Assembly: GCA_050950165.1 (NCBI GenBank)
Contig: JBMNHC010000001.1
Span: 529,073 to 593,072 of the forward strand
Origin: Candidatus Dojkabacteria bacterium
Lineage (GTDB): Bacteria > Patescibacteriota > Dojkabacteria > SC72
Length of the DNA stretch: 64,000 nucleotides
Direction: 5' to 3'
Shown here: positions 916 to 58,555 of the stretch, in pieces
Position numbering within the stretch: the first letter of the stretch is position 1
How the letters are laid out: each line of letters opens with the position of its first letter
Program-made: the position numbers and the translations under genes
The notes under the pieces: model-generated
Databases searched by the model: none
The model's input: the letters and a program-made list of their open reading frames with translations, nothing else
What the model was told of the DNA's origin: nothing

Positions 916-3741
916 ATGAACATCTCATTTTTTTTGTTTAAAAATCGAAAGAAACTAATTATATATCTAATAGGTCTAACATTAATACTCTTTCTTGTAT
1001 ATTGGTTTATACTTAGATACCCAGGCTATATATACTATTGGGATTTAAGTGGAGCTTTTGATTTCAGAGACCCATTTAGCCAATACTTCAACATATACAC
1101 CCCTTGGGATGGTAACAATATTGGAGTAAGAAATAGGTTACCTATTGTATTTACTTTATATTTATTACTCAAACCATTACTACTTGTTGGAGTAAGTAAT
1201 GAGATAGTGATTAAGGTAGCTACTACACTACTGTTTGTAGGAGGATATACTGTGATGTATTTTCTAGCTCCTAAGTTTGTAAAGATATTTGCTAAAACAG
1301 AAGTAGAAAGACAATCAGGAATATATATATGGGCATTATTAATAGCACTACTCTACTCCTTTATACCTTTTTATGTGTATAGAGTATCTCAATTACATCT
1401 ATTTTATATGAGTGTATTCTATCCTTTACATATATATCTTTTTATTAAACTATTTGAATCTAAGAAGTTTAATCCAAGATATATTGTTTTTTTTGTAATA
1501 TCTATGTTCTTTGGATTAACTACTCCTAATATAATTGTGTTTGAACTATTTACTTTCATTGTATTAGGAATAGTACTTCTGATATCTAGAATAAAAGATA
1601 AGGAAGGTATTAAAGTAGTTATTACTAATTTTCTTCTTGCAGGAGTATTTGTATTTGTTACAAATATATATTGGATATTCCCCTATTTTATTCAAGGTTC
1701 TCCTCAACCAGGGTATGTTATTAATTCAACAATGATAGATTTGTTGTCTCAGGGAATTACATTTAAGAATTTCTTACTTGGACAGTCTGAATGGTTTGTT
1801 AATCAAGGAGATTTAGGTATTTTGGAAACCAAAGATGATGCAATACACCTACTTCAAATATTTGGTATTTCTATCTTTTATACTGTTTCCTTAATAGCTT
1901 TAGTTAGATATATTAAAAAGAGATATATAGTACCAATTGTCATATTTCTTTTAATATCTCCTCTACTCATATTTAATTTACTACCGTTTCAGAAGGAGCT
2001 ACAAGAAGCTCTGGTATACTCTCCTTTGGGATGGATATTTAGAGAGGTAAATAGGGTATCTTTTTTCTGGGCGTTCTGGACATTTATTCTCTTTTTAGTA
2101 GGTACATACTCTTTGTATGAAAGTATCCTGTTAGATGGGAGATTGAATAGGATATTGAAGATTATTGTATTTCCAGCAATATTTATTCCTTTCATTATCT
2201 TCCTTCTACCAGTAAATATTAAGTTCTTTCAATACCTCAAACCGATTGAAATACCAAATGAAGTCAATGAGATTTTTAAAGTACTTGAAGAAGATGAAGA
2301 GTATTTTAGTGTTCTATACTATCCCAATGTAGACTCATACTCTATACCTTGGATGAAGGATAAGTTCCCTATTGCTGATGCTGAAGAGTATAAATTACTA
2401 GCGTACAATTCTCCAAAGCCTCCTGTTGGAATTAGTAGTGTCATACCAAACGCTAAGACATATCAAGAACTTCTAACGGAGTATTTAATACAAAATAGGG
2501 AGATATTTCCCAATTTATCTCACCTTCTATCAGGTATAGGTGTTAAATATATTGTAGTGAATAAAACAGCAGAACCAATTAATATAAATGTTGATTATGT
2601 TAGAGCAGAGGTAGTATATCCTGTCTATCTATACCTACAAAACAGTGAAGAGTTTGAAGAGGTCTTAGTTAACAATTACTATGTTCTTTTCAAAAATAAT
2701 GATTTTAGGGGAGTTATTTCTAATGGAAACAACGATATATATACAACTGCATCATTTAATATTTTAGAGCATATTCATCCTGATATTGTAAAAAAATATA
2801 ATGTTAAATTTTGTGGATTTAAAGAAAATTACAGAGAGTGTTTTGAGAAGGGAAGATTTAAGAAAACTTTCTTTAAGTACGAAAAAGATACTTACTTCTA
2901 TTTAGATTTCCTTACAAAAGAAGAGAAAGAGAAATATGGAGTATATGTATATGATTATACTTCTGAACATAGAGTAGGATTAGATTGGGGAAGGGCATCA
3001 TATTACGATAAGGTAAATGGAGAACTTCATAATATTTTTAGAAGGTACGGTATTAGTGGGTGGGACTTCGAAATTACAGATAAGGTTGTTTATTCAGACT
3101 TACCCTTTATTAAAAAAGATGAAGGATATAAATCATCTATATCTTTAAAAAATGAAATAGAGTGTGTGGGAGAGTGTGAAGTGTATGCATACATACTCTA
3201 TAACCATATTGGTGGAGAGTTAGAAATAGAGGTTGGAGATAATAGGTATGAGATAGATACCCAAAGTGATTTTGAGGTATACAGATGGACAAAGTTAGGA
3301 GATATTGATATTGGAAATCCTGAGTTGGATTTTAGTATAGAGAATAGTAATGGATTTGCTAGTATTGGAGGAATTCTGATTCTTCCTAAATCTTTAATGA
3401 CAAAACTTGATGAGAGAATATCTGAGATATCATTTTTAGATGTAGCTGAGGACTCAGTAATTCCTATGGGAGATATTAATATCTCTCCAGATAGTTGTAA
3501 TTTTACAGATATACAGTACAGACATAATAGAATTACTGCTTTTACAGATTGCGAAGATACTAGAAATATATATCTAAGCAATTACTATTATGACTATATA
3601 GTAGATAGAAAAGATGATAGGGTTGAGATAGTACTTAATAACTATAAAAATGTTTATTTAATGTTTTTATTCTTTAGCTCAGCAGTACTTCCTATCTTAG
3701 TAGTAACACTTCTAACTTTGTCTAAAAAGAGGCGTGTCTGA
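916..3741 (+). CDS. large polytopic membrane protein (N-terminal about 470 aa with many TM helices, C-terminal about 470 aa soluble domain plus C-terminal TM); possible GT-C-type glycosyltransferase/oligosaccharide transferase-like
   Basis: 941-aa ORF; hydrophobic-segment pattern typical of GT-C fold membrane enzymes; no PglB/AglB WWDYG motif found; adjacent to GT4 glycosyltransferase. Confidence 0.5.
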   Translation: MNISFFLFKNRKKLIIYLIGLTLILFLVYWFILRYPGYIYYWDLSGAFDFRDPFSQYFNIYTPWDGNNIGVRNRLPIVFTLYLLLKPLLLVGVSNEIVIKVATTLLFVGGYTVMYFLAPKFVKIFAKTEVERQSGIYIWALLIALLYSFIPFYVYRVSQLHLFYMSVFYPLHIYLFIKLFESKKFNPRYIVFFVISMFFGLTTPNIIVFELFTFIVLGIVLLISRIKDKEGIKVVITNFLLAGVFVFVTNIYWIFPYFIQGSPQPGYVINSTMIDLLSQGITFKNFLLGQSEWFVNQGDLGILETKDDAIHLLQIFGISIFYTVSLIALVRYIKKRYIVPIVIFLLISPLLIFNLLPFQKELQEALVYSPLGWIFREVNRVSFFWAFWTFILFLVGTYSLYESILLDGRLNRILKIIVFPAIFIPFIIFLLPVNIKFFQYLKPIEIPNEVNEIFKVLEEDEEYFSVLYYPNVDSYSIPWMKDKFPIADAEEYKLLAYNSPKPPVGISSVIPNAKTYQELLTEYLIQNREIFPNLSHLLSGIGVKYIVVNKTAEPININVDYVRAEVVYPVYLYLQNSEEFEEVLVNNYYVLFKNNDFRGVISNGNNDIYTTASFNILEHIHPDIVKKYNVKFCGFKENYRECFEKGRFKKTFFKYEKDTYFYLDFLTKEEKEKYGVYVYDYTSEHRVGLDWGRASYYDKVNGELHNIFRRYGISGWDFEITDKVVYSDLPFIKKDEGYKSSISLKNEIECVGECEVYAYILYNHIGGELEIEVGDNRYEIDTQSDFEVYRWTKLGDIDIGNPELDFSIENSNGFASIGGILILPKSLMTKLDERISEISFLDVAEDSVIPMGDINISPDSCNFTDIQYRHNRITAFTDCEDTRNIYLSNYYYDYIVDRKDDRVEIVLNNYKNVYLMFLFFSSAVLPILVVTLLTLSKKRRV

Positions 3742-4820
3742 TTACTCCATTCAAAGTTTGTTGCCCATTTAATACAGTTATTCTGCTTACTAACATATTC
3801 TTCACTATTTGTTTGAATTCCCTCTATAGCTTCTTTCCAAGTTTCTTTTAAAGAGTTTTGTATAAAGTAACCAGTTTTATCACTAACACTATCTATTAAT
3901 CCAGGAACAGGATAACAGATGGTTGGAGTTCCTTTAGCTGCTGCCTCTATTACAGTAATTCCCCACCCTTCTTTTCTTGAAAATTGAACATGTAAGTGAG
4001 CTTTATCAAGAAGATCTTCTTTCTCTTGCTCTGAAATATATCCAAGAAATTTAACATTTTCATCAAGACCTTTCTCTTTTACTAGAGCTTTTAATCTAGT
4101 CTCATCCTCTCCCTTACCTGCAATTTTAAGAATAATGTTGTTAATATTTAGTTGTTTTTTTGAATACTCAATCATTTCAATTGCCTCCTCTATATGCTTC
4201 GTAGCCTTAATTCTTCCAAGAGAAACGATAAGGATGGGATCATTTTTCTTTTCTACTCTGTTTAGAACTTTTACATCTATACCGTTATATATAATGGTAA
4301 GATTCTTCTCTTTAAAACCATTTGATATTAGATCTTTTTTAGAAGAGGGAGAAACAGTAACTATATTCTTTTCTCTTTTATAGATCAAAGTAGTCATTTT
4401 TGTAAAAATGAAAGAGGCAATACCTCCAAGAAAAGTTCCGTATGCAGAAATCCACTCAGGAGATTGTAGATGATGTATTACAGTTATGTTATTTCTGTTA
4501 TAAAGGGGAATATTGAACGGTACAGCATTAAAGTTCTCTATTAAAAGATTACTCTCTTTTTTAAGATTAAAGATGTAGTAGAGAGGAGCAAGGATATAGA
4601 GGGAGATAGAGTTTCCCATCCTGATATACTCTATACCATCTCTAATTTCTTCTTTTTTAGAACCTTTATACCTTGAGGTAAGATATTTAACTGTATATCC
4701 ATTGTCTCTTAGAGTTTCAACCATCTTTGTGATATATACTTCTGCTCCTCCTGCTTCTGGATGCCAGATATCTCTCCATGCCATTACTACAATATTTTTA
4801 TTCTCTTTCATAGATTTCAA
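3654..4820 (-). CDS. glycosyltransferase family 4 (GT-B, retaining)
   Basis: 388 aa; N-terminal WHPEAGGAE motif and C-terminal EGWGITVIEAAAKGTPTI (E-X7-E) motif characteristic of GT4; 3' end overlaps convergent gene 916..3741 by 88 nt. Confidence 0.85.
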   Translation of the reverse strand: MKSMKENKNIVVMAWRDIWHPEAGGAEVYITKMVETLRDNGYTVKYLTSRYKGSKKEEIRDGIEYIRMGNSISLYILAPLYYIFNLKKESNLLIENFNAVPFNIPLYNRNNITVIHHLQSPEWISAYGTFLGGIASFIFTKMTTLIYKREKNIVTVSPSSKKDLISNGFKEKNLTIIYNGIDVKVLNRVEKKNDPILIVSLGRIKATKHIEEAIEMIEYSKKQLNINNIILKIAGKGEDETRLKALVKEKGLDENVKFLGYISEQEKEDLLDKAHLHVQFSRKEGWGITVIEAAAKGTPTICYPVPGLIDSVSDKTGYFIQNSLKETWKEAIEGIQTNSEEYVSKQNNCIKWATNFEWSNQTRLFLDKVRSVTTKIGSTAELKNKNIK

Positions 4821-6390
4821 AATATTCGTTATAACTTATCTTTCTTAACCCCTCAATCAATGCCCTACTCTTTTGAATAGCAAAGTCATCGAGATTAATT
4901 TCTGCACTTCTGTCATAGATAACATATTCAATATCATCAGGGATAAGTCCACTGTTGAATATCTCTTCATACGTTGGTGCATATTCATATAGATTTGCAC
5001 CATCCACTATCTCCGAGTTATTAATATATGAGATGAAATCAGAACCGTAGTAGCCCCAGTTATACTCTCTCATGTATAGCTTTTGGGGACTTGGAAGAAT
5101 TAATATCTTTGAATCTCTTGGAATATTAAAATACTCTTGAGGAATATTGACTTCTGTTTTTGAAGAGATCAAATTACCACTTAATACAGGATATGAATAG
5201 AGGATAAGGCTAATTAGAATGATTGGAAGGATAATCTTGCGTAGTTTAGTAAGATGAGAGATTGTAATTGCGCAAAGAAGAGTTAAAGGTAATACATATA
5301 TTGGCCATAGCTTACTTGAGGGCCATCTTAAGGCTTCTTTGATAAACGGAATTTTTTCAATTACAGAAACACCAAATCTACTGGATAGGAAAAGGAAGAG
5401 TAAAAGGAAGGTAGTAAGTCCAATTACTTTTTTACTTTTCTTAACGGTAAGTGCTAGAAGAGATAGTACAAAAGGTATTACTCCAAGTAAAGTATAAAAT
5501 ATATTCTCTTTATATATTTCATAATATTCAAATATAGGGGAGTTTGCAGAGTCGTGTAGCTCCATCCATCCCGTTGAGAAATTTGCAACATTAAGTAAAG
5601 AGTTTGTCTTTTCTGAGGCAATAATGCCTGAAGATATTCTATCCATATATGGATGTTGTACTAAATCTCTAATGTAGTTAAAAATTTGAACTATAAATAG
5701 AGAACTATCCCTATTAATCAACATTGTAAACTGTATTAAGATTAACCAAAAAAGTACTAATCCAGTAGCCCAAATTAAAAGTCTCTTAATATGAGAGTTC
5801 TTTTTAGAGAGTACGAAAGCTATTAAAACAATTTGAGATGTAAATAGCAAAAAAGCAACAATATTAAGTGATGTTGTAAGAAAAAGAATCGATAGAACAG
5901 AGATAAATATATAATCTCTCAGTATTAGTTTCTCACTTGAAAGGAAATATATTAATAGAGGAACAGTACCGTATGATGCGATAAAGAGAAAATTTGGATT
6001 TGAGAATATCCAGATAGAAAATAGACCTGTTATTAATACTATTGAAGAGAGTATCGAAGCTATACTACTTCTGGTAATACGTTTGGTTAAAAGTGCTACC
6101 CCAATTGAACCAAGTAGGAAATTGAATGATAGGTATAGATTGGAAATGATCTCTGGTGTTAATTGAAGGACTTTTAATAGATAGAGGAAGAGGGCTTGAA
6201 AGAGAATACCTCCATAGATAATTGCTGAGGTCCCTTTTATCCTTCCTAATATATCAGAAATATTAAAATATGGACTAGCATTATCCAAACCTATTACTAA
6301 TTTACTAAAGTCGAAGTTTAGGATAATTATCAGAAGAGATATACCTGTAACAATGATTAGGTAATAATTTTTTCTTAGGAAAGGAATCAT
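4798..6390 (-). CDS. polytopic integral membrane protein (about 12 TM) with C-terminal soluble domain; probable glycan polymerase/GT-C-like partner of the GT4
   Basis: 530 aa, mostly hydrophobic helices; 23-nt overlap with downstream GT4 gene suggests operon. Confidence 0.55.
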   Translation of the reverse strand: MIPFLRKNYYLIIVTGISLLIIILNFDFSKLVIGLDNASPYFNISDILGRIKGTSAIIYGGILFQALFLYLLKVLQLTPEIISNLYLSFNFLLGSIGVALLTKRITRSSIASILSSIVLITGLFSIWIFSNPNFLFIASYGTVPLLIYFLSSEKLILRDYIFISVLSILFLTTSLNIVAFLLFTSQIVLIAFVLSKKNSHIKRLLIWATGLVLFWLILIQFTMLINRDSSLFIVQIFNYIRDLVQHPYMDRISSGIIASEKTNSLLNVANFSTGWMELHDSANSPIFEYYEIYKENIFYTLLGVIPFVLSLLALTVKKSKKVIGLTTFLLLFLFLSSRFGVSVIEKIPFIKEALRWPSSKLWPIYVLPLTLLCAITISHLTKLRKIILPIILISLILYSYPVLSGNLISSKTEVNIPQEYFNIPRDSKILILPSPQKLYMREYNWGYYGSDFISYINNSEIVDGANLYEYAPTYEEIFNSGLIPDDIEYVIYDRSAEINLDDFAIQKSRALIEGLRKISYNEYFEIYERE

Positions 6391-6425
6391 AGATAAATAT
6401 TAGCATATCTTCTAAATAATAAACA

Positions 6426-6452
6426 AAAGACCCTCTTGCGAGGGTCTTTATA
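6426..6452 (-). terminator. rho-independent terminator hairpin (AGACCCTC-TTGC-GAGGGTCT) with T-run on minus strand
   Basis: perfect 8-bp GC-rich stem, 4-nt loop, followed by TTTTGTTTA on the minus strand just downstream of the 6458..6694 gene. Confidence 0.5.
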
Positions 6453-6457
6453 TCAAA

Positions 6458-6694
6458 TTACTTAAGAACTTTCTTCTTTAAAAATTTAGACCCTGTAATT
6501 AAAAGTACTCCACCAATATATGATGCAATACCTAGAAATACTAAGATGTCTAAATCTTCTAATCCTGTTGGAACAGGCTTATGAGGTCCATATGGATCAT
6601 AAGGACTGCCGTCAGCAAATACATTTGCTACGTTAGAAGATAATATTGTTAAAGAGATTAAAGTGCTAAGTAATAAAGTTTTAATCTTTCTCAT
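6458..6694 (-). CDS. small secreted protein with C-terminal cell-wall sorting-signal architecture (mini sortase substrate)
   Basis: 78 aa: N-terminal signal peptide (ends VFA/DG), short Pro/Tyr-rich mature region, KPVPTG motif, then hydrophobic helix and KKKVLK basic tail (tripartite sorting signal); sits next to a sortase gene. Confidence 0.5.
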   Translation of the reverse strand: MRKIKTLLLSTLISLTILSSNVANVFADGSPYDPYGPHKPVPTGLEDLDILVFLGIASYIGGVLLITGSKFLKKKVLK

Positions 6695-6762
6695 AGATAA
6701 GTAAGATTAAAAATTATTTAATTACAGGATAATTATAACATAAATAGATATATAATGCAACA

Positions 6763-7410
6763 CTATAGGGCAGTACTTTCTATTAGATTAGCATATCTAA
6801 AAATACGAACAGGTGTATTAAAGAATTTACAGGTATAGAGTATTAAATCGGCATTATAATCCGTAATATATGTTCCCTCCCCTTCTGCATATATCATGTA
6901 TCGAAATTTTCTCTGTTCCCATATTATTTCAATAATATCTCCATTCTTTGTTTTTGGTAGATTATAAAAAGATATTACATTTCTTGTCTCTTTAGTCCAT
7001 GATTTATATCCAAATCTATGTGCAGCAAGTATAATTGGAGTTTTACCATTCATTGGAGAACCGAATTCTGGTACCATCCATGTACCATTCCTAAGTGCAC
7101 TGATGTAGTCTTGCTCTGCAGATATTGGTGAGTTAATCCCTATACTAGGTATTCTAATGTATGGCTTAGTTGGTAATGAAAGATCAACAGGAGGTAGTAT
7201 ATCTTCCTCTACTACTTCAGTATTAATATTTTCTGTTGAAAATTCTTCTGTTAATGTTTCAATCTCTTTTTCAGTTTCTTTTGGATTAATATTGTAAACA
7301 ATGTAGGGTACTGTTGGTATTAAAAATACCCCTATTGAAACAACAACTAAAAGTATTCCAATGAACATATATAGGTTTGAAAGGTTTAAAAGAAATTTCT
7401 CTTTTTTCAT
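6763..7410 (-). CDS. sortase family transpeptidase
   Basis: 215 aa; N-terminal TM anchor; conserved sortase His (ILAAHRFGY), TLxTC-type catalytic Cys (LILYTCKF) and downstream Arg (RIFRY). Confidence 0.7.
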   Translation of the reverse strand: MKKEKFLLNLSNLYMFIGILLVVVSIGVFLIPTVPYIVYNINPKETEKEIETLTEEFSTENINTEVVEEDILPPVDLSLPTKPYIRIPSIGINSPISAEQDYISALRNGTWMVPEFGSPMNGKTPIILAAHRFGYKSWTKETRNVISFYNLPKTKNGDIIEIIWEQRKFRYMIYAEGEGTYITDYNADLILYTCKFFNTPVRIFRYANLIESTAL

Positions 7411-8214
7411 TTAGTTTTTACTTCTAAGATAGTTCTCTAGTATCATACCACTATTTATCATCTCTAGTGCATTACCCTTTCCAATATATCTGTAGTGCCA
7501 GCTTTCATGTTTATATCCAGTAATATGCTCATACCCTTTTGGATATGAGATTACGAAACCATATTTATACGCATTACTTTTCAACCATTTACTAGCTTTA
7601 GTATTAGAAAATCTATCTCCTAATGCATCCCCTATTTCATTTGTACTAAAATCGATAGTTGTTCCTAATTGATGCTGACTATGTCCTGCTCTTGCAGAGA
7701 ATGTATCTACATATTCTACATTATTATTATTTTTCTTCAGCCAGTAGTTATATGTACTTAGCTGTGTTTGATACGACCTGTATCCACTAACTATACTAAG
7801 ATCTATACCATCTGCTTTCGCATCAGATATCATATTAGTAAGATCAGCTATTAAGATATTTCTTAGGTAGTAACTGCTTCCTCTTCTAATACCTGAGTTA
7901 CTTGCTTTAACTAAATCCGATGGAGCGTATGTACTAGGAAGTTTGTACTGTTTATTAACAAGTACTAGTAAATGGTTTCCATTTTTAGTAGTTTCATATA
8001 TTGTATCTGGATATCTCCACCAACCATTAGTTGGTGTACTTTCTACTTTCTTCTCCTGGACTTTTTTAATAGGGGTACTATCTTCAGGGTAAACTACAGT
8101 GAAGATTTTCTCAATGGTCTCTTCTTTATCTTCTCTCCACTGCTCATCTTCTATCTTTTGAGGAAGAGAGAGTAAGAGTATAACTATCAAAATTGTAGTA
8201 AATATCTTTATCAT
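7411..8214 (-). CDS. D-alanyl-D-alanine carboxypeptidase, VanY/peptidase M15B family
   Basis: 267 aa with N-terminal anchor; M15B motifs SGYRSYQTQ, AGHSQHQLGTTIDF and ESWHYRYIG (EPWHxRYxG). Confidence 0.8.
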   Translation of the reverse strand: MIKIFTTILIVILLLSLPQKIEDEQWREDKEETIEKIFTVVYPEDSTPIKKVQEKKVESTPTNGWWRYPDTIYETTKNGNHLLVLVNKQYKLPSTYAPSDLVKASNSGIRRGSSYYLRNILIADLTNMISDAKADGIDLSIVSGYRSYQTQLSTYNYWLKKNNNNVEYVDTFSARAGHSQHQLGTTIDFSTNEIGDALGDRFSNTKASKWLKSNAYKYGFVISYPKGYEHITGYKHESWHYRYIGKGNALEMINSGMILENYLRSKN

Positions 8215-8625
8215 GATACTTAGATAGAGTATACCAAATATGTGTATTACTTTGTGGAGTAGTTGGTGATGTATAGTGTCTTTTATACAAGGTATTTACT
8301 ATGTCTATATAGGTCAGGAAGTATAAATATGTATCTGATATATTCAATTAATAAATTAGTGAGGTATAAGTATGGAGGTAGAGGAGTTAACAAAAAAGCT
8401 TTATAACTATGAAAAAACTTTAAACAGTATCTTACTCAAGGTTAATAGGTTAGAGAATAGAAAGAAAAAGAAAAGAAAGATTGTAGAAACTAAAGAAGAG
8501 TGTGTTATATATCTTAGCTTTGCAGGGTTAAATAGTAGATTTCCTGGTAGTGATTAGATATTGCTTTGATATAATATTGTTAGATTAAGGGAAAAGATAA
8601 GTGGATATGTAAAAGGGACTAAATA

Positions 8626-8634
8626 TGATATAAT
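8626..8634 (+). promoter_or_regulatory. candidate extended -10 element (TGATATAAT) upstream of the repeat-protein gene; a second identical copy lies at 8567..8575
   Basis: TGnTATAAT consensus about 40 nt upstream of the ATG at 8673, in a 450-bp AT-rich intergenic region; no clear -35. Confidence 0.25.
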
Positions 8635-8672
8635 GGTATAAGTTATTAATATATAAACTGTCTTACTTAATA

Positions 8673-11600
8673 ATGGATACACTCGGAGGTCGATTTTTAA
8701 ATGAGAATCTAGGCGATTTATCAAGCTCTAAACATGTTCAATATGATGCTGAACAGAAAGGAATTACAGGGTCTCCTTCTGAAGAACAGATAGCATCATG
8801 GGTTGATACAGCAGTAGGGATTCATACCAAACACCGAGGCAATCCTCAGGTCATGGATAGGATTAAGGGATACTATCATAGGGAGTATGTAATCAAGGCT
8901 GAGGATTTTCCAGAGAGTTATTTTACTAATCAGCAGCAACAGGCACGTGAACTAGGTTATGGTGATATTGCGATACCAGATAGGGTTAGAGAGATGGGAA
9001 TAGATGCAATACAAAAGGATCAGAAGCAATCATTAGATTTATGGATAGACTATCTGAATTCTTCCGATTCAGATTATCTTCCTAGTTGGGTCAAGTATTG
9101 GGCATTTCATGGAGTGCTTAAGTTAGGAAGGTATAACAAGGAGACTGGAGATTTTGAGCCTCGTTTTAAAGATACCGTTTCCCCTTTTGTTGAGATAAAT
9201 AGTGAGGCATTAGCGTATGCATTAGATACTCTTCAGAAGAAGTATGGTAAAGAGTATTTTGATTTAACCGACCAGATATTTGCTAAGACAACGGCCCTTA
9301 ATAGAGCCGAGCGTTTATCAAGCCAGAAGGAGTTATTAGAATCAATAGATTCTCAGGGAGTTAATCAATCGGGTAAAGTAATCACAGTACTAGATGAGAA
9401 GTCAGGTAGACCTCGTCATTTAAAGAAAAAAGATATTGATCGAATACGGAAGGAGGTAGGTCAGTTTGAGGATTTTGATATTGAGGCTATGAAGAAAGAG
9501 ATAGAGTCTTTAACTACTCAAAGGGCTAATGTCTTAGAGTCACGTGGTGTTCCTCAAAAGTTTTCAGATATCGATAGTCGAGAAGAAGATTTTGGTAAGC
9601 TTTATGCTTATGCTATTAATGAGGTAACTCCAGTTAGTCAGAGTGAGCGAGAAATCACTTCAGGTCAATGGGTTAAGTATGCTCAAGGTTCAGATTACAA
9701 ACCTCTTTATGATTCTTTACAGGGTCATGGTACTGGTTGGTGCACAGCAGGAGGAGAGGAAACAGCAAGGATGCAATTAGAGGGAGGAGATTTTTATGTT
9801 TATTATTCCAATGATTTACACGGTCATCCTGTTAATCCTAGGATAGCAATCAGGATGAATGGTGATTATGAGATAGCAGAGATTAGGGGAGTAGAGCAGA
9901 ATCAGCAGATGGATAGTGAGATATTAGAGTCAGGAGTTTTGGAATCTAAGCTTAAAGATTTTGGAGATGAGGGAGATAAGTACAAACAGAGAGTTTATGA
10001 TATGAAGCGAGTAACTGAAATAGAGAAGAAGACTAATCAGGGCATAGATTTAACTAAAGATGAGCTTGAATTTATATATGAGGTGGATAGAGCTATAGAG
10101 GGATTTGGATATGAAAAAGATCCTAGGATAGAGGAGATACAGTCCACGAGAGATATAAAGAAAGATTTTGCTTGTTTAGTTGATCTGTCAGGTTCAGACT
10201 ATAGCTCTAGTTTATTAGTCAATACATTACTTGATAATGATTATGATAGAGCAGTTGTTCAGTATTTAGGTAATTTTTCAGATTTAGATAGTAGTGTTGC
10301 AAATAGGTTAATGGATTGTGGAGAAGCTTGGGCAGTTGCTAAGAATTTGAATAGCTTTTTAGGTTCAGCCCACAATGATATTGTTGATAGGTTAATAGAG
10401 AGAGGTCATGGTGGGTCAGTTGCAGGGAATTTAGCTAACTTTTCAGGCTTGGACCACAATGATATAATTTATAGATTAATAGATAGTGGTTGGCATAATG
10501 CAGTTATAAAACATTTGGATAGCTTTTCAGATTTAGATAGTGGTGTTGCAAATAAGTTAATAGATAGTGGTCATGGAGAGCAAATTGTTAAAAATTTAAA
10601 TAACTTTTCAAGTTCAGCCCATAGCGATATAGCTCGTATCTTAATAGATAGTAGTCATGGTAGGGTAGTTCTTGAGAATTTGAATGGTTTCTCAAGTTCA
10701 GCGCATAATGATATCGCTGATAAATTAATAGATAGTGGTAAGGGTGAAGCAGTTGCAGAAAATTTACCTAACTTTTCAAGTTCGGCCCATAGCGATATAG
10801 CTCATATGTTAATAGATAGTGGTTATGGTAGGTCAGTTGCAGAGAATTTGTCTAATTTCTCAGGCTTGGACTATAATGATATAGCTTATAGATTAATAGA
10901 TAGTGGTTATGGTAGGTCAGTTGCAGAGAATTTGTCTAATTTTTCAGGTTTGGACCACAATGATATAGCTAATAGGATGATAAAGAGAGGTGATGGTTGG
11001 GAAGTTGCTGAGAATATAAATAACTTTTCAAGCTCAGCCCATGGCGATATAGCTCGTATGTTAATAGATAGCGGTCGTGGTGAGCGAGTTGTTAAAAATT
11101 TACCTAACTTTTCAAGCTCAGCCCATGGCGATATAGCTCGTATGTTAATAGATAATGGTGAGGGTAAAACAGTTGCTCGTTATTTGCTTGATTTTTTAGG
11201 TTTAGACCACAATGATATAGCACATAGATTAATAGATAGTGGTGAGGGTGAAGCAGTTGCTCGTTATTTAAAGAATTTTTCCGGCTTAGACCATAATGAT
11301 ATAGCTCGTGTATTAATAGATAGTGGTTATGATAGGTCAGTTGCTAAGTATTTGTCTAATTTTTCAGGTTTAGATAGTAGTGTTGCAAATAAGTTAATAG
11401 ATAGTGGTGAAGGTTGGTCAGTTGCTAATTATTTAGAGAATTTTTCCGGCTTAGACCATGTAGATATTGCCCACAAGATTATACGTAGTGGCAAAGGTCA
11501 TGCAGTTGTTCGTTATTTGCCTAATTTCTCAGATTTAGACCACAATGATATAGCACATAGATTAATAGATAGTGGTGAGGGTCAAGCAGTTGCTAATTAT

Positions 11601-13310
11601 TTAGAGGATTTTTCCGGCTTAGACCATAATGATATAGCTCGTGTATTAATAGATAGTGGTTATGATAGGTCAGTTGCTAAGTATTTGTCTAATTTTTCAG
11701 GTTTAGATAGTAGTGTTGCAAATAAGTTAATAGATAGTAGTTATGGTAGGTCAGTTGCAAAGAATTTGCCTAATTTCTCAGATTTAGACCACAATGATAT
11801 AGCACATAGATTAATAGATAGTGGTGAGGGTAAAGCAGTTGTTAATTATTTAGAGAATTTTTCCGGCTTAGATAGTAGTGTTGCAAATAAGTTAATAGAT
11901 AGTGGTGAAGGTTGGTCAGTTGCTGGATATTTGTATAAATTTTCAGGTTTAGACCATAATGATATAGCTTATAGATTAATAGATAGTGGTGAGGGTCAAG
12001 CAGTTGCTGAGAATTTATATAATTTTTCCGGCTTAGACCATAATGATATCGCTTATAGATTAATAGATAGTGGTAAGGGTAAAGCAGTTGCTAATGATTT
12101 AAAGAATTTTTCCGGCTTAGACCATAATGATATAGCTCGTATGTTAATAGATAATGGTGAGGGTAAAACAGTTGCTCGTTATTTGCTTGATTTTTTAGGT
12201 TTAGACCACAATGATATAGCACATAGATTAATAGATAGTGGTGAGGGTGAAGCAGTTGCTCGTTATTTAAAGAATTTTTCCGGCTTAGACCATAATGATA
12301 TAGCTCGTGTATTAATAGATAGTGGTTATGATAGGTCAGTTGCTAAGTATTTGTCTAATTTTTCAGGTTTAGATAGTAGTGTTGCAAATAAGTTAATAGA
12401 TAGTGGTGAAGGTTGGTCAGTTGCTAATTATTTAGAGAATTTTTCCGGCTTAGACCATGTAGATATTGCCCACAAGATTATACGTAGTGGCAAAGGTCAT
12501 GCAGTTGTTCGTTATTTGCCTAATTTCTCAGATTTAGACCACAATGATATAGCACATAGATTAATAGATAGTGGTGAGGGTCAAGCAGTTGCTAATTATT
12601 TAGAGGATTTTTCCGGCTTAGACCATAATGATATAGCTTATAGATTAATAGATAGTGGTAAGGGTGAAGCAGTTGCTCAATATTTAAAGAATTTTTCCGG
12701 CTTAGACCACAATGATATAGCTCATAGGATAATAGATAGTGGTGAGGGTCAAGCAGTTGCTAATTATTTAGAGAATTTTTCCGGTTTAGATAGTAGTGTT
12801 GCAAATAAGTTAATAGATAGTAGTTATGGTAGGTCAGTTGCAAAGAATTTGCCTAATTTTTCCGGCTTAGATAAGAGTGTTGCAAATAAGTTAATAGATA
12901 GTGGTGAAGATAAAACAGTTGCTCGTTATTTGCGTAAATTTTCCGGTTTAGATAGTAGTGTTGCAAATAAGTTAATAGATATGGGTTATGGTTGGTCAGT
13001 TGTTGTGTATTTGTCTAATTTCTCCGGCTTAGACCATGTAGATATTGCCCACAAGATTATACGTAGTGGCAAAGGTGAAGCAGTTGCTCATTATTTAAAG
13101 AATTTTTCCGGCTTAGACCACAATGATATAGCTTATAGATTAATAGATAGTGGTGAGGGTAAAGCAGTTGTTTTTTATTTGGAGAACTTTTCCGGCTTAG
13201 ATAGCAGTGTTGCCAATATATTAATAGGTAAAGGTTATCGTGAGAGGGTTGCTAAAAACCTTTCTAGTTTTACAAACTTAGACAGTAGTGTTCTAGAGAA
13301 ATTAAAGTAA
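8673..13310 (+). CDS. giant tandem-repeat protein: about 500-aa N-terminal domain of unknown function followed by about 36 tandem 27/28-aa repeats (consensus NFSGLDHNDIAHRLIDSGEGEAVARYLK, alternating with a 27-aa DSSVANKLID variant)
   Basis: single uninterrupted 1545-aa ORF; no signal peptide or TM helix; repeats are in-frame 84/81-nt units with a few hypervariable positions. Confidence 0.85.
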   Translation: MDTLGGRFLNENLGDLSSSKHVQYDAEQKGITGSPSEEQIASWVDTAVGIHTKHRGNPQVMDRIKGYYHREYVIKAEDFPESYFTNQQQQARELGYGDIAIPDRVREMGIDAIQKDQKQSLDLWIDYLNSSDSDYLPSWVKYWAFHGVLKLGRYNKETGDFEPRFKDTVSPFVEINSEALAYALDTLQKKYGKEYFDLTDQIFAKTTALNRAERLSSQKELLESIDSQGVNQSGKVITVLDEKSGRPRHLKKKDIDRIRKEVGQFEDFDIEAMKKEIESLTTQRANVLESRGVPQKFSDIDSREEDFGKLYAYAINEVTPVSQSEREITSGQWVKYAQGSDYKPLYDSLQGHGTGWCTAGGEETARMQLEGGDFYVYYSNDLHGHPVNPRIAIRMNGDYEIAEIRGVEQNQQMDSEILESGVLESKLKDFGDEGDKYKQRVYDMKRVTEIEKKTNQGIDLTKDELEFIYEVDRAIEGFGYEKDPRIEEIQSTRDIKKDFACLVDLSGSDYSSSLLVNTLLDNDYDRAVVQYLGNFSDLDSSVANRLMDCGEAWAVAKNLNSFLGSAHNDIVDRLIERGHGGSVAGNLANFSGLDHNDIIYRLIDSGWHNAVIKHLDSFSDLDSGVANKLIDSGHGEQIVKNLNNFSSSAHSDIARILIDSSHGRVVLENLNGFSSSAHNDIADKLIDSGKGEAVAENLPNFSSSAHSDIAHMLIDSGYGRSVAENLSNFSGLDYNDIAYRLIDSGYGRSVAENLSNFSGLDHNDIANRMIKRGDGWEVAENINNFSSSAHGDIARMLIDSGRGERVVKNLPNFSSSAHGDIARMLIDNGEGKTVARYLLDFLGLDHNDIAHRLIDSGEGEAVARYLKNFSGLDHNDIARVLIDSGYDRSVAKYLSNFSGLDSSVANKLIDSGEGWSVANYLENFSGLDHVDIAHKIIRSGKGHAVVRYLPNFSDLDHNDIAHRLIDSGEGQAVANYLEDFSGLDHNDIARVLIDSGYDRSVAKYLSNFSGLDSSVANKLIDSSYGRSVAKNLPNFSDLDHNDIAHRLIDSGEGKAVVNYLENFSGLDSSVANKLIDSGEGWSVAGYLYKFSGLDHNDIAYRLIDSGEGQAVAENLYNFSGLDHNDIAYRLIDSGKGKAVANDLKNFSGLDHNDIARMLIDNGEGKTVARYLLDFLGLDHNDIAHRLIDSGEGEAVARYLKNFSGLDHNDIARVLIDSGYDRSVAKYLSNFSGLDSSVANKLIDSGEGWSVANYLENFSGLDHVDIAHKIIRSGKGHAVVRYLPNFSDLDHNDIAHRLIDSGEGQAVANYLEDFSGLDHNDIAYRLIDSGKGEAVAQYLKNFSGLDHNDIAHRIIDSGEGQAVANYLENFSGLDSSVANKLIDSSYGRSVAKNLPNFSGLDKSVANKLIDSGEDKTVARYLRKFSGLDSSVANKLIDMGYGWSVVVYLSNFSGLDHVDIAHKIIRSGKGEAVAHYLKNFSGLDHNDIAYRLIDSGEGKAVVFYLENFSGLDSSVANILIGKGYRERVAKNLSSFTNLDSSVLEKLK
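11131..11639 (+). repeat. copy 1 of a 509-bp perfect direct repeat (second copy at 12130..12638), spanning about 6 repeat units
   Basis: the nucleotide strings are identical over 509 bp at an offset of 999 bp; the encoded 170-aa segments are identical. Confidence 0.85.
12130..12638 (+). repeat. copy 2 of the 509-bp perfect direct repeat
   Basis: identical to 11131..11639. Confidence 0.85.
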
Positions 13311-55963: not shown

Positions 55964-58555
55964 ATGTCATCTACATTAGAAAAAGTTAATAGAGCTGTTT
56001 ACTACTGGGAGGACTTTGAATCAAAAAATCTTAAAGAGTCTACTGTTGGACGAAAGGGTTTAAGCCTTTTTACACTTAAGGATATGGATGTTCCAATACC
56101 TGAGTTCTTTGTTCTTTCTTCGAAGGTGTTTGATGCATTTGTTTCAGAATCGTTGGTTAGAGATGGAGAGAGACTTTTAGAGAACAAAAAGAATCCAGAA
56201 GAGAGTGAAATACTAAGTAGTTTTCTAAAAACTAATTTTGAAGAGAGAGTTGTTGATGAGTTGGTGTCTGCATATACAAGACTCTCTGGTTTTACAGATG
56301 CATGGGTGTCAGTAAGATCGTCTGTGGTGTTCCCATCAGCACCAGAGGTTTCATTTAGTGGAATATTTTCAACTGAATTAAATATTCGTGGTGTAAAGAA
56401 TTTAATCTCCTCTATTAAAAGAATATATGCATCTCTTTTTACAGATGATGTAGTAGCATATGCATCTAGAAAAGGTATTAATCTTTCGGAGGTAAGACTT
56501 GCCATAGTGGTACAAAAAATGGTTCAAGCGGAGGTATCAGGTGTTGCATTCAGTGTAGATCCGATTACACAAGATCCTAGTAAATTAAGTATAGAGGCGG
56601 TATTTGGATTAGGAGATAGTATCTCTTTGGGAGAGTTGACTCCAGATACATATGTCTTGAGTAAGAAAGAGCTAAATATTTTAGAGAAACGCATATCTCC
56701 ACAGGAGTGGATGAAGGTAAGAATGTTAAGTAATACTGATGGTAAATCAGGAGTAGAGAAGATTAAGATATCTAATAATTGGAGTCATAGACAGAAGGTA
56801 GAAGATAGATATTTAGAAGAGATTTCAAAGATTACCATGATTATAGAGAACAAGCTAAGACAAGCTCAAAGTATTGAGTGGGTATTGGCAGGTGGGAAGA
56901 TATGGGTTTTGCAGAGTAAGAATCTCTATGAAGTAGAACATGAGGAATCTTTAATAGTGGATAGTAAAGAGTTCGATACATTAGCAGAGGTTCTTAAGTG
57001 GAGTATAGATAGATATGTTGGTTTGGGAATGATAGAGGATAAAGTAGTTCAAAAGGCTCAAAAGATAGTACGGGATAATAAGCATGAATTGGGGTCTTTG
57101 ACTGAGAAGTTGATAGATTTGGCAAAGAAGAAGGTTGTACAACAGCCTAAAGTTGAGAGTGTGTCCCTAACTCAAAGTAAGAAAGACCTGCTATTACAAG
57201 GTGTAGGGGCAAGTTTTGGTCAGGTAGTTGGAAGTGTTGTAGTGGTAGGTAAGGATAAAGATATTGGTATTAATAAGACAGATATTCTTGTTATCAAGGA
57301 GTTTGCATCAGAGATGGAGTCTTTGGTTGTACAAAGTGGTGGTGTAATTCTTGAGCATGGGGGTGTAACTAGTGATATCGCCATTTTATGCAGAGAGTTT
57401 GATATTCCAGCAATTGTAGGTGCACAAGGAGCTTCTACTACACTTAAGAATGGAGATATTGTTAGATTGGATGGTAATAGTGGGTCTGTATACAAAGAGG
57501 AGAGTAAGGAGGTAAAAGAGGTTGTAGAGAGTGGTAGTGATAAGAATGTTCATCCTGTTGTACAGGCATATAATGAAGAGAGTATAACTGGTATAGATTT
57601 ACTAAAGAGTACAGAGAAAAAGACAGAAAGTGAAAGTAGTTCTGAATATGCAACTAAGGTTCCTAAAGATCTAACCCTTCCTCCTTCAGCAACTAAAGTC
57701 TTTATTCATCCTACAGTCAAGAGTAAGGAGTTGATAGATTTCGTAGGTAGTTCTCACGGTATTGTATATTTAGATTTTGATCAAATTCTCATTGACTACG
57801 GTAGGCATATGCTAGCGTTTGTTGAAGAGAAAAAGTTTGTTGAATATTCTGCAGATATTGTATCTAAGTTATGCGAATATATTGATTTAGTAGAAGGTAA
57901 TCAGGTAATACTCTCACTAGGTGCAAGAAGTGCAGGAGAGTTTAAGTCTCTTACCAAAGGTAAAGAGTTTGAGAATAAAGAGATAGAGGATTCTACATAT
58001 GGCTTAGCTCACTACTTAGGCAACAGAGAGCTTCTAAAAAGATCCCTTATGATATTGCGTAGATTGAGAAATGTTTACAAAAAAAGGAATGTAGATATCG
58101 CCATTAACTCACCTATGAACGGTTCAATGATGAATGAATTTAAAAAGAGTCTTTCTGCAGCAGGTTTGCGAAGAACATCTACATTTAGAATATATGCGGT
58201 AATAGATACTCCTACAGAGGTAATCTTAGTAGATGAGATATTCGATTCTAAAATAGATGGTGTAATTTTGAATATGCCAAGGATAGCTAGAGTAATGCAA
58301 GGATTTAGCGTAGATGATCTAAAAGCTAGATACAATTTAGGAGTAAATAGTGTGTTTAAGATAGTAGATGCTGTAGTAGACAGAACAAGGGGTAGTAGTA
58401 AACATGTGATTATAATGGCAGAGGATAATAAGGATTTGATTAAATATTCTGTTTCAATGGGTGTATACGGTGTGTCAGTTAATTACCAAAATATTAAAGA
58501 GAGTAGAAAGGTAGTGGCTGATGAAGAGGCTAGGTTAATTCTTAGTAAGAGATAA
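55964..58555 (+). CDS. phosphoenolpyruvate synthase-like protein with substituted catalytic residues (probable pseudoenzyme or repurposed)
   Basis: 863 aa; N-terminal PEP/pyruvate-binding ATP-grasp blocks (GRKGLSL, VRSS...SFSG, YASLFTDDVVAYAS, VQKMVQAEVSGVAFSVDP, SIEWVLAGGKIWVLQS); central mobile domain GGVTSDIAILCREFDIPAIVG where canonical GGRTCHAAIIARE has His replaced by Asp; C-terminal TIM-barrel-like region lacks CEIP/NDLTQ motifs. Confidence 0.7.
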   Translation: MSSTLEKVNRAVYYWEDFESKNLKESTVGRKGLSLFTLKDMDVPIPEFFVLSSKVFDAFVSESLVRDGERLLENKKNPEESEILSSFLKTNFEERVVDELVSAYTRLSGFTDAWVSVRSSVVFPSAPEVSFSGIFSTELNIRGVKNLISSIKRIYASLFTDDVVAYASRKGINLSEVRLAIVVQKMVQAEVSGVAFSVDPITQDPSKLSIEAVFGLGDSISLGELTPDTYVLSKKELNILEKRISPQEWMKVRMLSNTDGKSGVEKIKISNNWSHRQKVEDRYLEEISKITMIIENKLRQAQSIEWVLAGGKIWVLQSKNLYEVEHEESLIVDSKEFDTLAEVLKWSIDRYVGLGMIEDKVVQKAQKIVRDNKHELGSLTEKLIDLAKKKVVQQPKVESVSLTQSKKDLLLQGVGASFGQVVGSVVVVGKDKDIGINKTDILVIKEFASEMESLVVQSGGVILEHGGVTSDIAILCREFDIPAIVGAQGASTTLKNGDIVRLDGNSGSVYKEESKEVKEVVESGSDKNVHPVVQAYNEESITGIDLLKSTEKKTESESSSEYATKVPKDLTLPPSATKVFIHPTVKSKELIDFVGSSHGIVYLDFDQILIDYGRHMLAFVEEKKFVEYSADIVSKLCEYIDLVEGNQVILSLGARSAGEFKSLTKGKEFENKEIEDSTYGLAHYLGNRELLKRSLMILRRLRNVYKKRNVDIAINSPMNGSMMNEFKKSLSAAGLRRTSTFRIYAVIDTPTEVILVDEIFDSKIDGVILNMPRIARVMQGFSVDDLKARYNLGVNSVFKIVDAVVDRTRGSSKHVIIMAEDNKDLIKYSVSMGVYGVSVNYQNIKESRKVVADEEARLILSKR

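Follow-up and report, generated by a model that had tools for sequence, protein, structure and literature searches.

What is the role of a protein that matches no named family and carries, behind a long N-terminal domain, dozens of tandem copies of a short repeat? The question is raised by a gene of Candidatus Dojkabacteria bacterium, an ultra-small member of the Patescibacteriota or candidate phyla radiation (CPR). The gene lies in contig JBMNHC010000001.1 of assembly GCA_050950165.1, of which a stretch of 64,000 nt (positions 529,073 to 593,072 of the forward strand) was analysed. This stretch is called the window and all coordinates refer to it unless stated otherwise. The open reading frame (ORF) listing defines a single complete ORF, stop codon included, that codes for 1545 amino acids (aa; Table 1). 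An earlier reading of the nucleotide sequence and its translations (the original prediction) compared the repeats with programmable nucleic acid-binding proteins or with rapidly diversifying ligand-binding solenoids. The protein is composed of two modules, a conserved N-terminal domain (N-domain) shared by a large CPR family and an acidic α-helical repeat array. In sister genes the place of the array is taken by leucine-rich repeat (LRR)-like arrays or by domains mutated by diversity-generating retroelements (DGRs). We favour, with a confidence a little above even, the interpretation that the array is a fast-evolving ligand-recognition module mounted on the conserved N-domain of this family.

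Architecture of the gene and fold of the array

The region downstream from the N-domain was correctly foreseen as about 36 tandem units of 27/28 residues: it has 36 full units and a terminal half unit. Tandem Repeats Finder (threshold 50) reports a period of 84 nt in ~30 copies with 72–76% matches (scores 1043–2075), together with longer, higher-order periods (168 and 333 nt). The unit consensus is NFSGLDHNDIAxxLIDSGxGxxVAxYLx. The initial description of near-identical units with mostly invariant positions was too strong, as their mean pairwise amino acid identity is 59% (range 30–100%) and 30 of the 36 sequences are distinct. F2 is the only strictly invariant residue and eight of the 28 positions (F2, S3, H7, A11, I15, G18, V23, L27) are conserved at 90% or more. 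A regular alternation of 28- and 27-residue units was not observed either. The 27-mers are interspersed irregularly among the 28-mers, about every fourth unit of the 333-nt super-repeat. The variable positions are roughly those noticed initially: an entropy of 1.7–3.0 bits was measured at positions 8, 12, 13, 19, 21, 22, 25 and 28. Synonymous divergence among units (pS 0.41) indicates that they are not recent copies of each other; a 562-nt tract at 97.2% identity is the sole long recent duplication found within the array.

The fold was predicted with AlphaFold2 for 12 units, using an alignment built from non-overlapping repeat blocks. The segment was modelled as a two-helix α-solenoid (predicted local distance difference test score, pLDDT, 92.7; predicted template modelling score, pTM, 0.80), the architecture anticipated from the sequence. 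The modelled unit is formed by a helix of 10 residues (7–16), the DSG turn (17–19), a helix of six residues (20–25), a 3-10 turn (27–29) and the FSGLD loop. We infer that D6-x-x-D9 is a helix-capping box. By helical periodicity, the conserved positions 2, 5, 10, 11, 14, 15, 23, 24 and 27 would build the hydrophobic core, while the variable residues would occupy non-core positions of both helices, of the turn and of the inter-unit loop.

In agreement with the original prediction, no named family of Pfam, NCBIfam, PHROGs, PADLOC or PDB was matched by the repeat or by the N-domain, and phage matches were absent for both. The array is of the same α-solenoid class as the HEAT, PBS-lyase HEAT-like and ARM proteins (e.g., the PP2A A subunit, 7xvk_A), being made of antiparallel two-helix units, but it is not recognized by their profiles: HEAT, HEAT_2, HEAT_PBS and Arm are absent from the Pfam matches at E ≤ 10 of both a 224-aa block and the full protein. 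LRV (1lrv_A; PF01816), a small Fe-S-associated protein from Azotobacter, is built of a 24-aa α/3-10 repeat that differs from the array in period and motif, and Pfam gave no LRV match. The Sel1/TPR units (34–44 aa) and the PPR/PUF units (35/36 aa) are longer than the 27/28 aa found here and their Pfam profiles do not match the array. The few hits obtained were rejected. The Pfam matches of the full protein to MukF_C, Hairy_orange, GcvP2_C and others contain no independently significant stretch and are repeat-summed artefacts. The NCBIfam match to the “SpbR family” (E = 3e-6) reaches 26.6 bits where the cutoff is 400 and is spurious; SpbR itself is a membrane protein resembling CAAX proteases. 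PADLOC assigned no family to the N-domain; the matches of the repeat block all stay below threshold (the best at E = 0.0017) and are presumably spurious and repeat-driven. The repeat is an α-solenoid in class that stands outside every named repeat family.

The gene is not the isolated oddity that it first appeared to be. A word-indexed homolog search had returned five matches for the repeat, a near-uniqueness overturned by an exhaustive HMMER search with a four-unit profile that detected it in 987 cluster representatives at E ≤ 1e-3, 215 of them at E ≤ 1e-30. These homologs carry about 5 to 37 units. Approximately 28 of the top 148 repeat proteins (P0126–P0273) combine the N-domain of the window gene with an array behind it. 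In most of the others the array comes first, at the N-terminus, and an unannotated domain of 500–900 aa without Pfam match comes after it. The repeat is fused in this way to at least four unrelated families of unannotated domains (groups 2/4/5 are mutually related, as are groups 3/7), none of them related to the N-domain. The clusters with an organism name (four of four) are from CPR bacteria (Saccharibacteria, Moranbacteria), two of the names coming from cluster members rather than from representatives; the helical repeat is apparently of CPR origin. Taken together, the number of representatives, the varied fusions and the CPR names identify it as an undescribed and fairly widespread mobile helical module. 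Examples of proteins with an N-terminal array are P0130 (aa 459–1386) and P0243 (aa 289–1043). The members of the Moranbacteria cluster of P0230 (90% identity) range from 548 to 874 aa, which suggests repeat-number polymorphism. Several partner domains have a conserved Cys motif (e.g., GNDTASCMPFG, GYLADVCYTAE). Homology of these motifs to the GWCTAG loop of the N-domain (see below) was discarded, since hhalign gave a probability <1% for all groups.

A conserved N-domain with an exchangeable C-terminus

The N-domain defines a family of more than 2,493 clusters (E-values from 1e-100 to 1e-281) whose members, typically ~600 aa long, share a domain of ~420–510 aa. With its motif patterns 357 species genomes from a wide range of CPR lineages were recovered, and the organism names attached to members are all those of CPR lineages or generic/unreliable labels of metagenome-assembled genomes. 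The window protein belongs to this family, with full-length N-domain similarity and the motifs G[HY]GTGWCT, GDF[YH]VYYS and DLNREALA. Conservation is found in two blocks (aa 1–194 and 257–513), separated by a lineage-specific insertion that is kept in the closest relatives and missing from most family members. The alignment of the window protein with 82 homologs has 27 invariant columns, which include W356 and C357. The Gly-rich/Cys loop that surrounds them (GHGTGWCTAG) suggests, on the basis of its conservation, a candidate catalytic or binding site. The domain was modelled as a mixed α/β fold, with a β-α-loop-α-β3 core at aa 331–406, for which no PDB relative was found. A resemblance of its motif to PcfJ-like proteins was dropped, as Pfam gave no match to the PcfJ family at E ≤ 10.

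The region that follows the N-domain differs widely among family members. It was classified in 84 family ORFs from 80 fetched loci. LRR-like arrays (tandem 22–23-aa repeats, LTSAEGLKLPESIGGxLxL) are found in 29 of the 84 ORFs, a globular domain of ~200 aa (…GLELCPAEVGP…VFxLxRxxDGLWL…FVFRxRK) in 31 and the helical repeat in three (L008, L023, L068), the remainder being other, masked or truncated; the helical repeat is also present in L082, the 76% identical relative of the window gene. In L019 HEAT-like repeats follow the N-domain. The closest full-length relatives, whose N-domains are 52–56% identical to that of the window protein, carry LRR-like arrays, while the 76% relative has the helical repeat. 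The C-terminal module is thus swapped at a conserved junction with the N-domain. The locus L078 has two tandem N-domain paralogs (3497–5806 and 5953–8187), both with LRR-like arrays.

The genes of globular type are associated with DGRs. A reverse transcriptase (RT) gene adjoins 13 of the 31 globular loci and none of the 29 LRR-like and three helical ones, and a ~113-aa Avd-like protein is encoded near the family gene in a few loci. Apart from these DGR components beside globular-type members, no neighbour gene is conserved over the 80 loci. Pairs of variable repeat (VR) and template repeat (TR) were identified in 11 of the 13 RT loci: the 3′ end of the gene contains a 131–136-nt segment that recurs ~450–500 nt downstream with 79–89% identity. 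The cassettes have the order VR, TR, then RT (L028, L021, L057, L060, L017, L032, L002, L020, L079, L076, L054; see Table 1 for L028). The mismatches fall at TR adenines in 22/22, 21/21, 18/18, 15/15, 18/18, 25/25, 18/18, 20/22, 22/23, 23/29 and 22/27 cases, i.e., 79–100% over the 11 loci. Such adenine-specific mismatches are the signature of DGR mutagenic retrohoming. The globular-type family members are DGR targets. A profile of their C-terminal domain found no relative in PDB or Pfam, so that a C-type-lectin fold was not confirmed.

The DGRs of CPR bacteria belong to the most abundant ones found in nature (PMC8144416), and their targets typically lack transmembrane (TM) segments, signal peptides and recognizable domains, with a modularity taken to imply intragenic recombination (PMC8144416). 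The window protein has in common with these (clade 2) targets the N-domain found in its DGR-target sisters, the constant N-terminus joined to a variable C-terminus, and a family without signal peptide, TM segment or recognizable domains. It differs from them in its C-terminus, a 36-unit helical array instead of a DGR-mutated domain presumed to be C-type-lectin-like, and in the way it would diversify, by repeat turnover and recombination. The combination of VR, TR and RT in cis that defines a DGR target, present for the sister genes of the 11 loci, is lacking for the window gene: a tblastn search of the 64 kb found no RT, Avd-like gene or globular C-domain, and no paralog was found there. The window protein is an N-domain sibling of the CPR DGR targets, yet is not itself a DGR target.

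Evidence on the role of the array and alternative explanations

A related strain provides a direct comparison. The syntenic 6.2-kb European Nucleotide Archive contig L001 shares the flanks and the first ~1,800 nt of the region with the window at 99–99.9% identity. Divergence starts at ~10093 (aa ~474), within the conserved EGFGYxKDPRI linker. The L001 array has ~5.5 units instead of 36; three of them match no window unit above ~79% nucleotide identity and the last 1.5 are identical. With the divergence confined to its region, the array is the part of the gene that is hypervariable among close strains. Repeat number and unit sequence both differ in this pair; two exact-pattern scans of Joint Genome Institute metagenome contigs yielded no further strain variants.

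The position of the array in the slot of DGR-hypermutated domains and LRR arrays, together with this strain divergence, makes a diversifying ligand-binding solenoid the interpretation that fits best, and this half of the functional proposal made originally is retained. In the mechanism that we propose the N-domain (aa 1–~505) would be the constant module and the C-terminal slot would hold an exchangeable, fast-evolving recognition module. The slot would here be filled by a solenoid of 36.5 helix-turn-helix units (~1,000 aa) whose core is fixed and whose non-core positions are free to vary. The array would play the same functional part as the DGR-mutated domain and the LRR arrays of sister genes, its diversity arising from duplication, loss and recombination of single units and of multi-unit blocks rather than from retrohoming. 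It would bind a variable, probably proteinaceous, non-nucleic-acid ligand (candidates are a host or phage surface or an intracellular foreign protein) and might deliver the bound ligand to the N-domain or couple it to the activity of this domain. The proposed mode of variation recalls repeat-array variable proteins that diversify by unit shuffling, such as LRR-based variable receptors and bacterial LRR/BspA-like surface proteins. As in these, units vary in copy number and sequence between close relatives, and LRR-like 22-aa arrays occupy the slot in sister genes. The array of the window gene is, however, helical and not a β/α horseshoe, and the window showed neither machinery devoted to recombination nor a library of silent cassettes.

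The other half of the original proposal, a programmable nucleic acid-binding protein that reads one base per unit as TALE, PUF and PPR proteins do, was not sustained and we regard it as very improbable. Like these proteins, the array is modular, with helical units in tandem whose variable positions recur. It is, however, acidic (net charge −47, pI 5.17), as are 96% of the 148 homologous arrays, whereas TALE, PUF and PPR proteins are basic, with a basic RNA-binding surface in the case of PPR/PUF, and this strong acidity argues against nucleic acid binding. Period (27/28 against 33–36), unit identity (59% against >90%) and number of variable positions (at least eight of 28 against one to three code residues) also differ, and no profile of these families, TALE included, matches in Pfam. 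In TALE repeats, which have 33–35 aa and form a basic superhelix around DNA, variability is restricted to residues 12/13. The unit types that recur stem from multi-unit duplications and not from a code.

Codon-level comparison of the units yielded a ratio of nonsynonymous to synonymous divergence (dN/dS) of 0.98 at the variable positions and 0.28 at all others. The value of 0.98 is about neutral and not one of diversifying selection, which speaks against a code of the TALE/PUF/PPR kind. The pattern is one of purifying selection on the fold with surfaces that appear unconstrained or weakly diversifying, and is not TALE-like. A structural solenoid is expected to behave likewise, and the array could be a passive rod or spacer in which length matters, the surface residues are free and the variation is neutral drift. 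The range of unit numbers among homologs (5 to 37) is compatible with this idea. It leaves unexplained, however, why the slot is shared with LRR arrays and DGR-hypermutated domains, which are classic ligand-binding modules, and why so many different domains, putatively enzymatic, are found fused to the repeat; we consider it improbable. In codons 14–20 and 23 of each unit (window 10272–13265) the series TTA ATA GAT AGT GGT … GGT … GTT is nearly devoid of synonymous variation (pS 0–0.2), with ATA in 35 of the 36 units and GTT in 35 of the 36, while synonymous codons are balanced at F2, D6, H7, A11 and L27 (pS 0.6–1.5). The low-pS tract may be homogenised or recombination-prone DNA or may reflect a codon preference.

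Part of the 36-unit length could also be an assembly artefact, or the gene a decaying pseudogene whose array has no current function. In L001 a TCA to TAA change creates a stop at codon 420 (L001 position 1647, equivalent to 9931 of the window) besides the reduction to 5.5 units, and L082 has a frameshift at ~4480, at the N-domain/array junction, followed by the helical repeat. These disruptions may be pseudogenisation, phase variation or assembly errors. Moreover, the exact 1545-aa protein is missing from the protein collection in which its neighbours (MGI6423484.1, MGI6423494.1) are present, and the 562-nt internal duplication, 97% identical, could mislead assemblers. On the other hand, the window ORF is intact over 4.6 kb in a contig of 724 kb, most units are 20–40% apart at the DNA level and therefore assemblable, purifying selection acts on the core positions (dN/dS 0.28) and other proteins carry 25–37 units of the same helical repeat. 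We give this explanation little credence.

The location of the protein bears on a sub-case of the ligand-recognition interpretation. A hydropathy scan found no hydrophobic segment in the window protein (maximum 19-aa Kyte-Doolittle mean 0.95; −0.34 in the first 40 aa), in agreement with the absence of secretion signal noted originally. The same scan, which is not a signal-peptide predictor, detected neither signal peptide nor TM segment in 120 of 120 family members. The protein thus lacks the marks of a secreted or surface-anchored adhesin, namely an N-terminal signal peptide, a membrane anchor or a sortase motif. The intracellular role that the original prediction drew from the missing signal is a possibility, beside export by a non-classical route, and the literature goes no further for CPR DGR targets (PMC8144416). 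The protein might be a cytoplasmic sensor of invaders whose array senses phage or other foreign proteins and whose N-domain acts as the effector, by analogy with NLR/STAND-type or DGR-diversified “antigen sensor” conflict systems. Roux et al. 2021 consider it possible that some CPR DGR targets are genuinely not membrane-bound (PMC8144416), DGR-diversified putative intracellular sensors have been described from other bacteria (PMC10907252), and the invariant Cys/Gly-rich loop of the N-domain could be catalytic. But no NTPase or known effector domain was found, the PADLOC searches gave nothing above threshold, conserved defence genes were not seen in the neighbourhoods of the 80 loci and the context in the window is one of housekeeping and cell-envelope genes (gyrA/gyrB, sortase, VanY, GT4). 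This sub-case appears unlikely.

Several observations weigh against a ligand-recognition array itself. The placing of the variable residues outside the core is deduced from helical periodicity, and one contiguous binding face is a conjecture. The absence of a DGR from the window ties the gene to diversification by family analogy only. The strain comparison depends on one contig of a short-read MEGAHIT assembly, for which repeat collapse or chimerism is possible (the L082 contig is also of short-read origin), and the stop in L001 and the frameshift in L082 raise the possibility that the gene is dispensable or in decay. A dN/dS of ~0.98 at the variable positions fits mere relaxed constraint on surface residues, and the codon analysis of the units gave no positive sign of adaptive diversification. 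Finally, the binding of a ligand and its kind, like the location of the protein and catalysis by the N-domain, are, for every family member, properties that we infer.

Genomic neighbourhood and significance for the CPR

The gene is preceded by a short Lys-rich ORF and, in divergent orientation, by a cell-envelope cluster (6458–8214) in which a 78-aa protein could be the sortase substrate (Table 1). The GC skew is 0.29–0.375 over positions 8001–12000 and about −0.26 to +0.25 elsewhere in the window, except for 0.374 at 56001–58000. The positive skew across the gene probably reflects the composition of the repeat codons (GGT, GAT, AGT, GTT), which are G-rich and C-poor.

Table 1. Features of the repeat-array gene, its neighbourhood in the window, and a DGR cassette of a sister gene (positions of the last three rows are those of locus L028).
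Feature	Position	Strand	Remarks
Two-module protein: conserved N-domain and helical repeat array	8673–13310	+	complete ORF
Conserved N-domain, aa 1–~504	8673–10184	+	homolog alignment; large CPR family
Lineage-specific insertion, aa ~195–256, long helix and β hairpin	9255–9440	+	alignment, model
Signature loop QGHGTGWCTAGG, aa 350–361	9720–9755	+	alignment; T354, W356, C357 invariant in 83 aligned members
Strain-divergent segment	~10093–13190	+	25–30% mismatches in alignment to L001
Degenerate “unit 0”, LSGSDYSSSLLVNTLLDNDYDRAVVQYLG, aa 505–533	10185–10271	+	joins N-domain to array; modelled helices 512–521, 525–532
36 tandem units (26 x 28 aa, 10 x 27 aa), aa 534–1531	10272–13265	+	repeat parsing
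Recent internal duplication, copy 1, 562 nt	11106–11667	+	97.2% identity to copy 2
Recent internal duplication, copy 2	12105–12666	+	offset from copy 1 of 999 nt (12 units)
Terminal half unit, 14 aa, SFTNLDSSVLEKLK	13266–13307	+	same sequence in related strain L001
941-aa hypothetical protein MGI6423484.1	916–3741	+	no Pfam match
GT4 glycosyltransferase	3654–4820		
530-aa polytopic membrane protein	4798–6390	-	no Pfam match
78-aa protein, signal-like N-terminus, C-terminal hydrophobic tail	6458–6694	-	cell-envelope cluster
Sortase	6763–7410	-	cell-envelope cluster
VanY D-Ala-D-Ala carboxypeptidase	7411–8214	-	divergent, just upstream of gene
61-aa Lys-rich ORF	8372–8557	+	directly upstream; no family match; also called in L001 (88–273)
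L028, VR	7630–7765		
L028, TR	8106–8241		
L028, RT	8559–9632		

The CPR or Patescibacteria account for a large share of bacterial diversity, and their recognition of hosts and invaders is largely unexplained. Two sizeable unannotated families are delineated here, the N-domain (more than 2,400 clusters) and the 27/28-aa repeat (987 representatives), and three diversification strategies (DGR, LRR-like arrays, helical repeat) are tied to one conserved CPR domain. They offer three handles on the activity of the N-domain and on the ligand recognized, and make the question of the CPR DGR targets more tractable. The short, regular and confidently predicted fold of the helical repeat may interest protein engineers. 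More tentatively, these genes might represent a CPR-wide system, devoid of signal peptide and TM segment, in which one conserved, possibly Cys-dependent activity is combined with a recognition module diversified, according to lineage, via DGRs, LRRs or helical-repeat turnover. In that case the helical repeat would be a new natural modular scaffold for protein recognition, reused with several other unannotated enzyme-like CPR domains, and the family would be a major system of host interaction or invader sensing in these episymbiotic bacteria.

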